Assembly (NCBI GenBank): GCA_964600755.1 | Contig: CAZRKQ010000236.1 | Span: forward strand, 812 to 64,811 | Length of the DNA: 64,000 nt | Direction of reading: 5' to 3' | Origin: an uncultured Thiotrichaceae bacterium | Lineage (GTDB): Bacteria; Pseudomonadota; Gammaproteobacteria; SZUA-229 | Notes under the pieces: generated by a model | Seen by the model: the letters and a program-made list of their open reading frames with translations, nothing else | Database searches by the model: none | Told to the model about the DNA's origin: nothing | Program-made: the position numbers and the translations under genes | Part shown: positions 4,967-21,386 of the stretch, in pieces | How the letters are laid out: each line of letters opens with the position of its first letter | How positions within the stretch are numbered: the stretch's first letter is position 1

Positions 4967-5383
4967 TTATTCACCGGTCACGGTAATCGTCAATTTACGT
5001 TCAGCCGCGTGCGAACTTTGCTCCCATAAAAAGATTCCCTGCCACACGCCGATGGCTGGTTTGCCGTTGCTTATTGGTATGCTGATGCTGGTCCGGGCAA
5101 GTGCATAGCGCATGTTTTCAGGGATGGCATCCATACTGGCATTGATTTTGTTATCAATATTGTCGCTGCTGGGTGCAAGCTGTGCCATGAATGCAGCGGT
5201 CTCGTTTTTCGTGGACTCATCTGCGATATCGCCGATGAGCAATGAGGCGCTGCTGCTTTGAATAAACAACTGGCAGGTGCCTATGCGAATGCTGGATTCC
5301 TTGATGAAACCTTCTACAAGGTCGGTGATTTCATATGCGCCCTTGCCGCGATCAGATAGTTCAATTGTGTCCTGGTAAACCAT
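4967..5383 (-). CDS. YjbQ/UPF0047 family protein, degenerate paralog
   Basis: GKGAYEIT, GVWQGIFLWE and terminal RKLTITVTGE match the upstream YjbQ, but the HTSAS and AH motifs are replaced. Confidence 0.75.
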   Translation of the reverse strand: MVYQDTIELSDRGKGAYEITDLVEGFIKESSIRIGTCQLFIQSSSASLLIGDIADESTKNETAAFMAQLAPSSDNIDNKINASMDAIPENMRYALARTSISIPISNGKPAIGVWQGIFLWEQSSHAAERKLTITVTGE

Positions 5384-5799
5384 TATTCTCCCATCACTGT
5401 AACTGTTATCTTGCGATTATGCGGATGTGTGCGGTGCTCCCATAAATAGATGCCCTGCCACGTACCAAGTGTGTCTCTGCCACCTTCAACAGGTATAGAC
5501 AACGAGCTTTGCGTGAGCACGGTTCGAACGTGCGCCGGCATATCATCCGGACCTTCATCGGTGTGCTGAAACATGCTGTCACCATCGGGGATAATTTTTT
5601 TCATAAACGTTTCGAGGTCCGTGCGTACTGTCGGGTCAGCATTCTCACACAATATCAATGAGGCACTGGTGTGGTGAACGAATATCTGGCAGATACCCTG
5701 TTTTATGCCGGAGTCATGGATAACTTCATCAACTTGCTGGCTGATGTCAAAAGTGCCGCGTCCCCGGGTGGGGAATCGGAGTTGTTGCTGGTGAACCAT
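5383..5799 (-). CDS. yjbQ: YjbQ family protein (secondary thiamine-phosphate synthase family, UPF0047)
   Basis: HHTSASLILCENADPTVRTD, EGPDDMPAHVR, LGTWQGIYLWEHR. Confidence 0.9.
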   Translation of the reverse strand: MVHQQQLRFPTRGRGTFDISQQVDEVIHDSGIKQGICQIFVHHTSASLILCENADPTVRTDLETFMKKIIPDGDSMFQHTDEGPDDMPAHVRTVLTQSSLSIPVEGGRDTLGTWQGIYLWEHRTHPHNRKITVTVMGE

Positions 5800-17720: not shown

Positions 17721-17902
17721 GTATACACCTCGGATGAATGTTAAAGGATCGTTAAATGCTATTACAGTATTCAACACCATCTAAATTAACGATAGCAGTC
17801 ATATATGTCAATATTGTTACTAAAAGATAACGTATTTATCTTGTTCGCAAGCATCAGTAACTTTATTGCTTTTGCTGTTTGGCGCAAACATTTGAGTCCA
17901 TT

Positions 17903-18751
17903 ATGGCCAGAATATTAATAGCAGGTTGTGGAGATATTGGCTCTGCTGCAGGTCGACTGCTCGCAGACGATGGTCATTATGTCGTTGGATTGAAAAGACA
18001 TCCTCCAGCTAATGGTAATAAAATCAGTTATATAAAGGTCGACTTGATGCGTCCTGGTGATCTGGAGGGCATCGACACCCGTTTTGATCTTGTGATCTGC
18101 GTGCTTACACCTGATGACCGCAGTGAGCAGGCATACAGAAACATATTCGAGCTTGGTGTTGCTAATCTGCTGAATATTTTTTCGCGGAATAATCCGGAAA
18201 CAAGATTTATATTCGTTTCATCTACCAGTGTGTATGGCCAGACGTATGGCGAATGGGTCGATGAGGAGTCTGTGACCGAGCCCGGCACTATTACAGGCAA
18301 GATCATATTACAGGCAGAAAAGTCCTTTCTTTCACATGGCGTTAATAATTGCATCATTCGCTTTTCAGGCATATATGGCCGCAGCAGAAGCCGTCTGCTG
18401 GATACTGTAGCATCAGGCGGCAAGGTTCAATATAAACCACCGTATTATATGAACAGGATACACAGGAAAGACTGCATTGGGGTGCTGTGCTTCATTGCTA
18501 ACAAGATGATTGCCGGGATTAATCTTGAGCCGATATACCTGGCTTCCGACGATGACCCTGCACCCAGGTGGGATGTGTTTAATTTTATAGCCGACAAGCT
18601 CGGGACTGGGAGACCGGAAAAGCAAATATTGCCGCACAACAGTGATCAAAACAAACGCTGCAGTAACAAGCGTCTTAAGCAGCTGGGATATGAATTTCTC
18701 TATAAAAGTTACAGGAATGGCTATGATTTTATCGAGCAATTAGATAGCTAG
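17903..18751 (+). CDS. NAD-dependent epimerase/dehydratase (atypical SDR, YeeZ-like)
   Basis: ILIAGCGDIG, VSSTSVYGQ, GEWVDE, RFSGIYG, NRIH, NKRCSNKRLK. Confidence 0.85.
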   Translation: MARILIAGCGDIGSAAGRLLADDGHYVVGLKRHPPANGNKISYIKVDLMRPGDLEGIDTRFDLVICVLTPDDRSEQAYRNIFELGVANLLNIFSRNNPETRFIFVSSTSVYGQTYGEWVDEESVTEPGTITGKIILQAEKSFLSHGVNNCIIRFSGIYGRSRSRLLDTVASGGKVQYKPPYYMNRIHRKDCIGVLCFIANKMIAGINLEPIYLASDDDPAPRWDVFNFIADKLGTGRPEKQILPHNSDQNKRCSNKRLKQLGYEFLYKSYRNGYDFIEQLDS

Positions 18752-18819
18752 TACCCGTTAACTAGTTACCTTAAATAATGGGTCTTCCCCAAATACAGTG
18801 GGCTGATACGATGAAAACT

Positions 18820-19430
18820 TTGCCACAGAGGCACAGAGAATACAGAGGCTTTTGTTGTTAGTAGTACCTGCTTTAGTTGCTAGCTTAAGTTGATCGTATT
18901 TATCAACATTTTATTTCGCCTTGATGGCGAGTCACTTTTCTTTGCCCATGTAAAATTTCTAGGCAAAGAAAAGTAACCAAAAGAAAAGACACCCTGACCA
19001 GTTTGCCCTTCGGGTTCCCTCACCATTCACCTTTGCCTACGGGCCGTCCTGACTCGCCGTCCAGGCTCGACATGACTAAATTCGACGTCCCTGTCGGCCA
19101 TCAGTTTATTTCCAGGGCCCTACCAAAGCCGAATGCCTCGGCAAACTTCAAGGGGAGGAATCCCTCTTTACAGTCAAACAGCGTGTAGGGTGCAATAGCG
19201 AAGCGTATTGCACCGACTGCATCCGGCGGATTACGGCTAACGCCTAATCCGCCCTACGGGTATGCGAAGCACGAGCGCCCGGGGCGCATTTTTTGGGCGA
19301 GCAAAAAAGGTAACTCGCTCCAACAGGAGCGAAATAAAATGTTGATAAATACGATCAACTTAAGTTAGCGACTAATGTCGCCTCTACAAAATAATAAAAA
19401 ACCTCTATGTTCTCTACGCCTCTGTAGCAA
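18820..19430. mobile_element. nested composite of non-autonomous inverted-repeat elements (MITE/REP-like)
   Basis: Three concentric inverted-repeat pairs (18820-18848/19402-19430; 18879-18919/19329-19369; 18927-18947/19295-19318) enclosing a GTAG-ended REP doublet (19185-19214, 19225-19257); no transposase ORF. Confidence 0.8.
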
Positions 19431-19466
19431 TCATTTGAAGTTTACCCACTTGATGTGGTGAAGACC

Positions 19467-21386
19467 CTAAATAATAAGCGGTGGCACAGGGCAATCAAGT
19501 ATTGCAGAGATGGCGCGATATATCTCCACTTCATTCGCAGTGATCTGCTGGTCAGCAGTTATACAGACGGCGCAGGCTTTAAGCAGGCGGGGTTTCTCCA
19601 GCGGTTTCAGCTTCGCCAGTCTGTCGAGTGAGCTGTTCAGGGTTTCCAGCTTGATCTCGCTTGTCGCCAGCAGTGATAAATCCAGTCCACCCAGTTGCCT
19701 GGTGGCTTGATTAAATGCGTCGCTTTCACTGATTCCCTGCTGCTTGCCTGAATAAACCAGGACGGATAACAGTACTGCGCATGCATCTTGTGCCTGCGCC
19801 AGCACCAGGTTCTGGCGTGTGGTTCCCGGTTTTGTAATAAACACGGGGTCGAGGTGATGAAATACGATTTTTCGAATGGACCACTCAAGCAGGCTGACTT
19901 TGCTGTCAATTTCAATCAGCGTATTCAGGTTCTCCTTGAATAACCTGTATTGATTCGTTGACAGCTGATGCAGGGTTGCCAGTGCCAGGTCTACTATGGG
20001 TAGACGATATTCTTTTTTCAGTTCATAGCCGGCGCGCACCAGCTTCATTGTTTCTTCATAAACACCGGTATCAGCAGCAGATTTCAGGTGCTGAAGCTGC
20101 TCATTATGCACCGCCTTGTCTTTATCCAGCAGCATGAAATAAATAACCGCACGTGCAGCAAAAGGGTCGTTTACTGCTGATGCAAATTCGGGCGGTAAGT
20201 CATGTATCAGCTTATGGGCATAGGCCAGGTGCGATGGTGTTGGCTGCCCGATTTTGTCGATAATCTCTCCGCTGGTCATTGCCGCAGCTATTGCTGCCAT
20301 GGTTGCAACTTGTTGTGCGGATCGCTGATCAGTCACTGTGTCTTCATCTGTGACCTGGTCGACATCTGCCGGTAGTGAATAATCAAATTCGCCATCCCAA
20401 TTGGGCTGTATGCTGTAAATACGCTTCTCCAGGGGTGGGTGGGTAGCATAGAGATTGCCTAGCCACGTTTTAATGCCCTGGCTGAACAGGGCATGGCTGA
20501 TTTGTACGCCTGAGGGGTTTTCTATAATCGAGCCAGTGGCATCACCACCGATACGCTTGAGAGCGCCGCCAATACCATCCGGATTTCTGGTGAACTGTAC
20601 TGCGGATGCGTCAGCAAGAAATTCGCGTTGCCGGCTGACCGCAGCCTTGATCAGGTTGCCGAAGAAGGTGCCGGCAAAGCCGATCACAACCAGGCCCAGG
20701 CCAAGCACAGCTGCGCCGCCACTGTCTTTTGAGCGGCGTGAATGTGATGCACTTCTCAATATGTAGTAGCCAATCATGCCGATCAGCAGAATGCCGTGCA
20801 GCAGGCCAATCAGTCGAATATTCAGCTTCATGTCGCCATTCAGCACATGGCTGAACTCGTGGGCAATAACGCCCTGCAGCTGTTCACGGCCAAGTTTTTC
20901 TATGGCGCCTCGGGTTACACCGATTATTGCATCACCTGGTTTGTAACCCGCAGCGAAGGCATTAATACCGTCTTCATCAAGCAGGTATACTGGAGGTACA
21001 GGTGTGCCTGAAGCAATTGCCATTTCTTCGACAACGTTAAGTAGTCGTTGTTTCCTGAAGTCATTGCCGCCGTTCACAACCAGCTCGGCATCGAGCATTT
21101 CGGCGACACGAGCCCCGCCTCCTGCAAGGGCAAGAATTTTATACAGGCTGCCAAGCGCGATGGTGATTGTTACTGCGGCACCGATCACGAGGAATACCTG
21201 CCAGTCGATCTCCCGGATAAGTTGTTCTGTATTGATCGTGCCGGTTTGCTCGACGTTGATATAGCCAAAAGCGAACATTACCAGCAGGTTAGTCATCACT
21301 ACCAGCGAGATCACAGCAAGTAAGAACAGGACGACGAGCCGGCCTGTATTACGACGGGCCTCATCCTGCGATTTGAAGAAATTCAT
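19467..21386 (-). CDS. M48 family (HtpX-like) membrane zinc metalloprotease with C-terminal extension
   Basis: INAFAAG, HEFSH zinc motif, SRQREFLADASAVQFTRNP, ATHPPLEKRI; downstream of lemA. Confidence 0.9.
   Translation of the reverse strand: MNFFKSQDEARRNTGRLVVLFLLAVISLVVMTNLLVMFAFGYINVEQTGTINTEQLIREIDWQVFLVIGAAVTITIALGSLYKILALAGGGARVAEMLDAELVVNGGNDFRKQRLLNVVEEMAIASGTPVPPVYLLDEDGINAFAAGYKPGDAIIGVTRGAIEKLGREQLQGVIAHEFSHVLNGDMKLNIRLIGLLHGILLIGMIGYYILRSASHSRRSKDSGGAAVLGLGLVVIGFAGTFFGNLIKAAVSRQREFLADASAVQFTRNPDGIGGALKRIGGDATGSIIENPSGVQISHALFSQGIKTWLGNLYATHPPLEKRIYSIQPNWDGEFDYSLPADVDQVTDEDTVTDQRSAQQVATMAAIAAAMTSGEIIDKIGQPTPSHLAYAHKLIHDLPPEFASAVNDPFAARAVIYFMLLDKDKAVHNEQLQHLKSAADTGVYEETMKLVRAGYELKKEYRLPIVDLALATLHQLSTNQYRLFKENLNTLIEIDSKVSLLEWSIRKIVFHHLDPVFITKPGTTRQNLVLAQAQDACAVLLSVLVYSGKQQGISESDAFNQATRQLGGLDLSLLATSEIKLETLNSSLDRLAKLKPLEKPRLLKACAVCITADQQITANEVEIYRAISAILDCPVPPLII

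Follow-up and report, generated by a model that had tools for sequence, protein, structure and literature searches.

In a 64,000-nucleotide stretch of DNA from an uncultured Thiotrichaceae bacterium (contig CAZRKQ010000236.1; hereafter the window), the gap between two convergent genes, an NAD-dependent epimerase (17879-18751, plus strand) and an M48 peptidase (19467-21386, minus strand), holds what is probably a 688-bp composite non-autonomous transposable element (18780-19467) whose insertion at the peptidase stop codon produced an 8-bp target duplication (TAAATAAT). That assessment is a joint one for the best explanation as a whole: the composite nature of the element, the identity of its layers, their mobilization and the copying of sequence between its arms. 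The layers are all of known kinds, nested in one another: an ISL3-type miniature inverted-repeat transposable element (MITE), a TwoAYGGAY motif, and repetitive extragenic palindromic/bacterial interspersed mosaic elements (REP/BIME). New here are the series of nesting states at a single site and the setting of the orphan TwoAYGGAY motif, which lies at the core of a palindromic repeat that is present in high copy, has conserved hairpins on its flanks and shows REP-like features. The element at this locus is most likely ordinary selfish DNA in decay.

An exact 8-bp direct repeat abuts the terminal inverted repeats of the element, and its outermost sequences form an inverted pair (GGGTCTTCCCCAAATACAGTGGG at 18780-18802 and CCCACTTGATGTGGTGAAGACCC at 19445-19467), a fourth in addition to the three that a first-pass annotation had drawn as concentric. 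That annotation had placed the element between convergent genes, as we confirm, and all the sequences it quoted are present in the window, with the REP doublet, the hairpin and the 36-bp core located. The extent it gave (18820-19430) lies inside the element, whose true ends and target duplication fall outside those limits (18772-19475). The outermost features are the following:

18772-18779, unstranded: left target-site duplication, TAAATAAT, an exact match to 19468-19475; it also flanks the elements of related loci L001, L038 and L082.
18780-18819, plus strand: shell end A1, an ISL3-type terminal inverted repeat (GGGTCTTCCCCAAATACAGTGGG…), which pairs with 19445-19467.
19431-19467, minus strand: shell end A2, an ISL3-type terminal inverted repeat (GGGTCTTCACCACATCAAGTGGG… on the minus strand), the counterpart of A1.
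19468-19475, unstranded: right target-site duplication, TAAATAAT, an exact direct repeat.

The final base of the element is the G of the peptidase stop codon, TAG. We infer that the stop codon before insertion was TAA, and TAA is found at the equivalent position in L080, a relative in which the site is empty. The left arm (18780-18945) and the reverse complement of the right arm (19300-19467) form a single gapped alignment of about 166 nt with 82% identity. As all the inverted pairs are in register in this one alignment, the three concentric pairs are real but are collinear blocks of a single arm, not separately spaced pairs. The longest exact inverted repeat, 36 nt, is longer than that in any of 200 shuffles of the intergenic region (maximum, 20). 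The only open reading frames (ORFs) inside the element encode 48 and 61 amino acids, and it contains no transposase gene; blastn detected no further copies of any layer in the remaining 63 kb of the window. (The two short ORFs were rejected as genes, since family copies vary in length and swap modules across the same stretch.) Terminal inverted repeats with a target duplication, small size without a transposase, and multi-site copies with an empty site in relatives mark this as a MITE, while the GGCTCTT-like inverted ends and the 8-bp length of the duplication are ISL3-like.

Across relatives, the same chromosomal site forms a natural series of a rare kind, running from an empty site through the shell alone and the shell with its guest to a guest with the REP doublet. 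In the empty-site comparison that the first-pass annotation had proposed, the element is absent from L080 and L081, whose M48 proteins are 83% identical to that of the window, and 7 nt separate the two stop codons. In L082 (M48, 86%), only a 184-bp shell lies between TAAATAAT and TAAGTAAT, in the order A1, three nonamers, a single central hairpin (TAGGAGCGACTTTAGTCGCTCCTAC), three nonamers, A2. This shell looks like an ordinary ISL3 MITE, and the window form corresponds to that shell plus a 479-bp guest. L038 has a 767-bp version, although it shares 96% identity with L082 in the neighbouring 600 nt of the M48 gene. The 688-bp element of the window and the 795-bp element of L001 have flanks that are 98% identical and identical right halves but different left arms; in L001 the left arm has a core that has diverged, 50 nt of inserted sequence and an additional REP doublet (GTAGGGTGGGCTTTGCCCACC…). 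The occurrence of shell-only and full versions at one site indicates that the shell and the 479-bp interior are separable. The earlier proposal of successive insertions of non-autonomous elements was thus right in essence, as layers occur separately and the site can be empty, shell only or full. The layers themselves have to be redrawn: the 36-bp core and the GCGAGTYAC pair belong to one TwoAYGGAY-type unit, and the outer pair is made of the nonamers of the shell. The series shows intergenic DNA growing by nesting of repeat within repeat and then being reshuffled by recombination between copies.

In L079 (Thiotrichales bacterium CP070838.1), synteny differs and the locus is partly masked. An all-against-all presence/absence search of the fetched loci yielded no clean filled/empty pair for the interior; it did return duplications and REP insertions inside the unit, plus one unrelated 227-bp insertion. 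The latter is present at L041 (2131-2359) and absent from L074 (1695/1696) in contigs that are otherwise 94% identical, and with its inverted ends (AGCCCGCATATTGCA … TGCAACATGCGGGCT) it resembles another small mobile element. The epimerase of the window ends with five extra residues (18734-18751, …EQLDS*) relative to that of the empty-site locus L080 (4931-4945, …GYEFV*); the 3′ ends of both convergent genes are therefore lineage-variable around the insertion site.

Between its ends and the interior, the shell consists of nonamer arrays and linkers with REP-type hairpins:

18820-18848, plus strand: left module B, three tandem nonamers (TTGCCACAGAGG CACAGAGAA TACAGAGG), the outer pair of the first-pass annotation.
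18849-18885, plus strand: T-rich linker and decayed REP-d hairpin, recognized from stacked left flanks, the family consensus (GTAGGAGCGACTTTAGTCGCGAA) and the intact counterpart on the right arm.
19365-19401, minus strand: REP-d hairpin (GTAGAGGCGACATTAGTCGCTAA on the minus strand) and A/T-rich linker, recognized from the arm alignment and the family consensus.
19402-19430, minus strand: right module B, three nonamers (TTGCTACAGAGG CGTAGAGAA CATAGAGG on the minus strand), the inverse of the left.

The left array lies within TTGCCACAGAGGCACAGAGAATACAGAGG (18820-18848), which has its imperfect inverse at 19402-19430 (34-nt arms, 82% complementary). The inverted ends of the shell begin GGGTCTTCCCC and GGGTCTTCACC in the window and GGCTCTTCCC in L026, L032 and L075. 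Among published elements, the corresponding sequence is GGCTCTTCGCGG in ISArsp7 of the ISL3 family (PMC6305408) and GGCTCTTCG in Microcystis aeruginosa, which has ISL3 elements and their MITE (PMC11448079). Like these insertion sequences (IS) and MITEs, the shell has GGCTCTTC inverted ends (here GGGTCTTC or GGCTCTTC) and an 8-bp duplication, and it is small, non-coding and multi-copy. Unlike them, it has unusually long and mosaic arms, its cargo is a repeat family, and no cognate transposase was found in the 15 window ORFs scanned. An A1-type end is present at about seven other independent loci, always with the nonamer module adjoining, and target duplications can be discerned at two of these composites, L026 (TTACTTGA / TTATTTGA) and L032 (ATCTATCT / ATTTATCT), each matching at 7 of 8 positions compared with 8 of 8 in the window.

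B-type nonamer ends (CACCACAGAGGCACAGAGTACACAGAGG) also bound an unrelated element of about 150 bp at L041 (6170-6320) and L074 (5690-5910). As the interior of that element is unrelated to the TwoAYGGAY unit, the nonamer array serves as an end module of more than one element. A query made from the A2 and B family sequences has a 19-mer, CCACAGAGGCACAGAGAAC, that is matched exactly in four cyanobacterial plasmids of Nostoc and Anabaena (NC_020157.1, NZ_CP091915.1, NZ_CP046705.1 and NZ_CP040273.1), and the nonamer array of the window (18827-18845) is one base off this sequence (…GAAT). Each of these matches has an E value of 4, which is at chance level statistically, yet they are recurrent, and similar tandem-nonamer repeats may exist in cyanobacteria. 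At L015 (2100-2420), a stand-alone REP a/b doublet is sandwiched between two half-shells in direct orientation, each made of a REP-d hairpin, a nonamer array and a common ATCATGTGTGTAATCGA flank, a layout that suggests a larger duplicated arrangement.

The guest within the shell is a palindromic unit with its own terminal repeats and hairpins:

18886-19364, unstranded: interior TwoAYGGAY-type palindromic repeat unit, 479 bp, missing from the shell-only allele L082 (window compared with L082 and L038).
18884-18919, plus strand: left terminal repeat, a perfect 36-bp core (CTTAAGTTGATCGTATTTATCAACATTTTATTTCGC) with its exact inverse at 19329-19364.
18915-18931, plus strand: left hairpin D (TTCGCC TTGAT GGCGAG, then a T-rich run), terminator-like and inward-facing, conserved at this end in almost every member of the family.
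18931-18977, unstranded: hairpin GTCACTTTTCTTTGCC … GGCAAAGAAAAGTAAC, with 16-nt arms that are 94% complementary; a homologue flanks the Psychromonas TwoAYGGAY copies.
19001-19149, minus strand: first TwoAYGGAY-like module, degenerate, with two GGAC-loop hairpins retained and its closing stem, P1, mispaired.
19185-19257, unstranded: REP doublet in inverted orientation, both units GTAG-headed (REP a, 19185-19214, plus; REP b, 19225-19257, minus), with a weak match to naRNA4, a REP/BIME-type family.
19275-19297, plus strand: module F, a terminator-like hairpin (GCGCCCGGGGCGC) followed by TTTTTT, kept in the family.
19314-19333, minus strand: right hairpin D (TTCGCTCC TGTT GGAGCGAG, then a T-rich run), terminator-like and inward-facing.
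19329-19364, minus strand: right terminal repeat, the 36-bp core, an exact inverse of the left.

In a blastn comparison within the window, the 36-bp core pair lengthens to 47 nt at 95.7% identity (E = 2e-16). The GCGAGTYAC pair (GCGAGTCACTTTT at 18927-18939 and the inverse of GCGAGTTACCTTT at 19306-19318) represents the subterminal hairpins of the TwoAYGGAY-type unit, of which the 36-bp core is the terminal repeat; the stem of the right hairpin D differs in sequence from that of the left, with pairing retained. The halves of the small hairpin noted in the first pass are CTTTTCTTTGCC (18935-18946) and GGCAAAGAAAAG (18962-18973). The left arm of the window most resembles the reverse-complemented right arm of L038 (88%), the best-matching left arm being 84% identical, which is expected if arms have been copied from one to the other. 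In L001, the left copy of the 36-bp core is diverged. From these sequence comparisons, the 36-bp core was probably made uniform by arm-to-arm copying.

The identity of the core rests on comparison with related loci. Rfam reports a TwoAYGGAY (RF01731) match in the window at 19043-19102 on the minus strand that scores 26.5 bits (E = 0.27; gathering score, 43 bits) and covers model positions 48-110 only. Twenty related loci contain 24 TwoAYGGAY matches at or above threshold (43.3-61.9 bits) in the corresponding orientation, and the window core is 88% identical to that of L017, which passes. Since the window copy is sub-threshold by itself, its identity is clear only via these relatives, and it is best read as a degenerate TwoAYGGAY homologue, not a scoring member. 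On the minus strand its loops are AGGGAC and CUGGAC, compared with AUGGAC, AUGGAU, AGGGAC and CGGAC in relatives; the window loops retain GGAC but not the Y at position 2. Its P1 strands are different alleles (GAGGC versus GGTGA) and are unpaired.

Compensatory changes show that the core family is structured. When 59 distinct cores were aligned, they gave a 36-pair consensus in which P1 shows compensatory changes at pairs 36:152, 37:151, 39:149 and 43:145 and the first hairpin shows CG/UA, CG/AU and AU/GC changes in 15 to 22 sequences. Paired cells amount to 98.4%, compared with 94.8% in shuffles (none of 500 as high), double-change cells number 89, compared with 33, and slid controls reach 31-48% pairing; these figures come from cores that are related to one another and from a search pattern that had fixed part of the second hairpin beforehand. 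Across the alignment, G·U pairs outnumber A·C mismatches by 70 to 11, an excess that assigns the structure to the strand corresponding to the minus strand of the window, as RNA or as single-stranded DNA. The earlier alternative of one large structured RNA or DNA element is partly borne out, for the core alone: its family is structured and covaries, but the copy in the window is degenerate (26.5 versus 43 bits; folding z = -1.2).

Canonical family members contain two TwoAYGGAY modules in opposite orientation, as judged from partial opposite-strand Rfam matches and from the sequences. In this lineage each module is edged by GTAGG on both sides (GGTAGGG … CCCGTAGGC), a feature that the Rfam consensus is without. 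TwoAYGGAY was originally described from human-gut sequences, Clostridia and gamma-proteobacteria, with a P1 that is often very large and with no function or mobile context given (Weinberg et al. 2010, PMC2864571). In the alignment printed there, the Psychromonas ingrahamii flanks contain a T-rich hairpin (TTTTGGTTACTTTTCTTT … AAAGAAAAGTAAC), a D-type hairpin (CGCCGTCAGGGCG) and an A-rich module with …GCCTAC, as do the arms here. This shared flank architecture indicates that the repeat unit extends beyond the Rfam model and predates this lineage. The likeness to RF01731 thus lies in two adjacent hairpins with GGAY-type loops within a long P1 stem and, for the Psychromonas seed sequences, in the flanking T-rich hairpin, D hairpin and CCTAC module; the difference is that the motif here sits in a palindromic high-copy unit with inverted ends of its own, usually as two opposed modules. 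These observations provide a genomic context for TwoAYGGAY in marine-sediment Gammaproteobacteria and, by its flanks, in Psychromonas, and they make its function testable as a mobile-element signal instead of a housekeeping RNA.

The REP doublet has replaced part of this unit. GTAG REPs are standard substrates of RAYT enzymes, as the first-pass annotation had stated. Both REP a and REP b combine a GTAG head with an imperfect palindrome (GTAGGGTGCAATAGCGAAGCGTATTGCACC and GTAGGGCGGATTAGGCGTTAGCCGTAATCCGCC), and as expected of REP/BIME sequences they recur as inverted units, with 38 REP a/b units over the fetched loci, including two stand-alone doublets (L015 2215-2290 and L032 10448-10520) that lie over 2 kb away from the nearest core. 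Of 45 family members, 11 have REP a/b inside the unit with identical junctions, in place of the second TwoAYGGAY module from GTAGGG onward, and at other loci another GTAG REP doublet (GTAGCCTGGATG…) occupies or adjoins the same point. To judge from the junctions, replacement at GTAGGG would fit an exchange at GTAG by a RAYT-type enzyme. Related DNA contains at least four further GTAG-headed REP families (GTAGGGTGGGCTTTGCCCACC, GTAGGAGCGACTTTAGTCGCGAA, GTAGCCTGGATGCAACGAAGTGGAATCCGGG and GTAGGGTGCGCCGTGCGCACC), which often lie inside or beside the TwoAYGGAY unit (L001 9170-9245, minus strand; L026, L029, L030, L035, L042; L077).

The GTAG edges also bear on what the TwoAYGGAY module itself may be. 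One reading is that, in this Thiotrichales-like lineage, it acts as single-stranded DNA, a REP-like signal that an HUH nuclease of the RAYT or IS200 type would cut, and is not an RNA gene. The presence of GTAGG on both sides of the module and its exchange for GTAG REP doublets exactly from GTAGGG would permit this, as would the G·T-tolerant strand asymmetry, which fits single-stranded DNA as well as RNA. We regard it as an unlikely reading, though if true it would give the orphan motif a role as a mobile-DNA recognition structure and explain why these repeats nest in one another.

Beyond this locus, one metagenome scan, for which a 24-mer was taken from the best-conserved part of the unit, found 68 loci, which together with one locus in a metagenome-assembled genome (MAG) represent about 64 independent places. 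The core unit is present at these places mostly without the shell, and its common order is hairpin D, T-rich hairpin, structured core, variable centre, module F, T-rich hairpin and hairpin D. The nonamer module lies left of the core in 19 of 55 assessable independent loci, and A-type ends are found in about 8 of the 55. The shell is oriented relative to the core as in the window in L020, L026, L037 and L054 and is flipped in L032 and L075, as expected from inversion across long arms or from entry either way round. Composites with identical junctions recur at several other loci, which implies that parts of the nest travelled already nested and that the nest need not have formed here.

The family is abundant where it occurs: by summed contig depth in sediment metagenomes, the core reaches 40 to 100 times the depth of its flanks. 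Identical or near-identical copies of the window genes were found only in marine-sediment metagenome contigs, and the closest named homologue of the M48 peptidase (81%) belongs to a 'Thiotrichales bacterium' MAG. In a genome collection, a degenerate pattern for the 36-bp core gave three matches, one of them real (L009, in an 'uncultured Gammaproteobacteria' MAG). A plasmid collection searched with the whole element and with A2 plus the B end returned only the 19-nt nonamer matches of Nostoc and Anabaena (E = 4), and viral contigs searched with the core motif and the A2 end returned no match and hence no sign of phage carriage. Many metagenome contigs start or end inside the repeat, and at L005 (5014-5109) a 31-aa 'gene' has been called wholly within the element. 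Such elements break metagenome assemblies and yield spurious small-gene calls.

Taken together, these data suggest a model in which an ISL3-family DDE transposase would have acted in trans to move the shell with its contents; the case for this enzyme comes from ends that start GGGTCTTC / GGCTCTTC and from the 8-bp duplication, as in ISArsp7 and the Microcystis ISL3 elements and MITE. The REP doublet would have entered, or been exchanged, at GTAG via a RAYT-type HUH enzyme. The arms would have been kept alike by copying or recombination between them. Arm copying would account for the perfection of the 36-bp core, and the strain-to-strain differences in left arms would stem from recombination with paralogues.

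Several observations weigh against this model. The search for transposases that the first-pass annotation had called for found neither an ISL3 transposase nor a RAYT among 15 window ORFs (Pfam; about 50 ORFs lay outside the scan), and those checked are housekeeping genes. Two of the three independent target duplications contain one mismatch. The window TwoAYGGAY copy is under the Rfam threshold and folds no better than shuffles. The difference between L082 and L038 is not a clean indel, as the left arm differs too; gain, loss and allelic replacement all fit, and recombinational replacement by paralogous copies is as likely as insertion or deletion. For the interior unit, an automated search aimed at its ends and at a target duplication could define neither a duplication nor a fixed target, many copies being chimeric, with left and right ends of different subtypes. 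Finally, family members are present in metatranscriptome contigs, though at a ratio to their flanks that is close to the DNA ratio and without strand information.

A simpler alternative to nesting is that all the inverted blocks are the ends of a single MITE that always moves as a unit, the layers being conserved patches of one terminal repeat. The register of the three pairs in one 166-nt arm alignment is what this would predict, as are the composites at L026 and L032, which are bounded by A ends, share the A-B junction and have 8-bp duplications of their own; the last transposition probably did move the whole composite. However, the layers do not always occur together, the observation that the first-pass annotation had named as decisive: the core is without B and A modules in about two-thirds of the independent loci, the shell stands without the interior at this very site, and the REP a/b doublet is found alone. 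The B-type ends on an unrelated small element and the variable orientation of the shell relative to the core point the same way. As a complete account, the single MITE is already contradicted by these partial copies, and we consider it improbable.

We are similarly doubtful that the locus has kept a single large structured RNA gene with a function, or a cis-acting RNA such as a long hairpin that terminates and stabilizes the convergent mRNAs as a bidirectional terminator or insulator. Hairpins with T-runs do face inward on both arms (18915-18931, plus; 19333-19314, minus), with a third at 19275-19297, but three terminator-like sites are not clearly above the shuffle mean of 1.2 (standard deviation, 1.2). 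The covariation of the core family, with its strand asymmetry, and the presence of family sequences in metatranscriptome assemblies speak for such an RNA; against it, the window core no longer has its closing stem and folds no differently from shuffles, and the ratio of RNA to flank depth is DNA-like, in data without strand information. Close relatives, moreover, manage without the element, with a 7-nt spacer in L080 and L081 and the 184-bp shell in L082. Under the composite-transposon model, the inward-facing hairpin and T-run motifs may incidentally terminate both convergent transcripts. That the palindrome was made in place, by inverted duplication or template switching during replication, would suit its long arms with a perfect 36-bp core and the absence of a second copy from the 64-kb window, but it is already contradicted by dozens of copies with unrelated flanks on other contigs, the 8-bp target duplications here and at two other loci, the transposon-type ends and the empty site in a relative, and can be set aside as scarcely credible.

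Two groups of bacterial repeats invite comparison with the composite element. ERIC (IRU) and YPAL sequences of enterobacteria are intergenic imperfect palindromes of one to several hundred bases, often located between convergent genes, with longer variants that arise by insertions at fixed internal positions. They are not known to have sequence similarity to the element described here, and ERIC is not known to have ISL3-type ends or an 8-bp duplication. REP, BIME and REPIN sequences are associated with RAYT (TnpA-REP) HUH enzymes (Nunvar 2010; Bertels and Rainey 2011; Ton-Hoang 2012). The repeats here share with REP/BIME the GTAG head with an imperfect palindrome, inverted pairing, the coexistence of several REP families and the occurrence of the doublet in several contexts. 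They differ in being sparse (one doublet in 64 kb) and in the absence of a RAYT from the ORFs scanned, and the doublet takes the place of a structured module, beginning at a GTAGGG common to both, instead of lying in plain intergenic DNA. Some insertion sequences are known to target REP palindromes. Elsewhere in the window, two adjacent 138-aa UPF0047 paralogues (4967-5383 and 5383-5799, minus strand) are arranged such that the stop of one abuts the start of the other.

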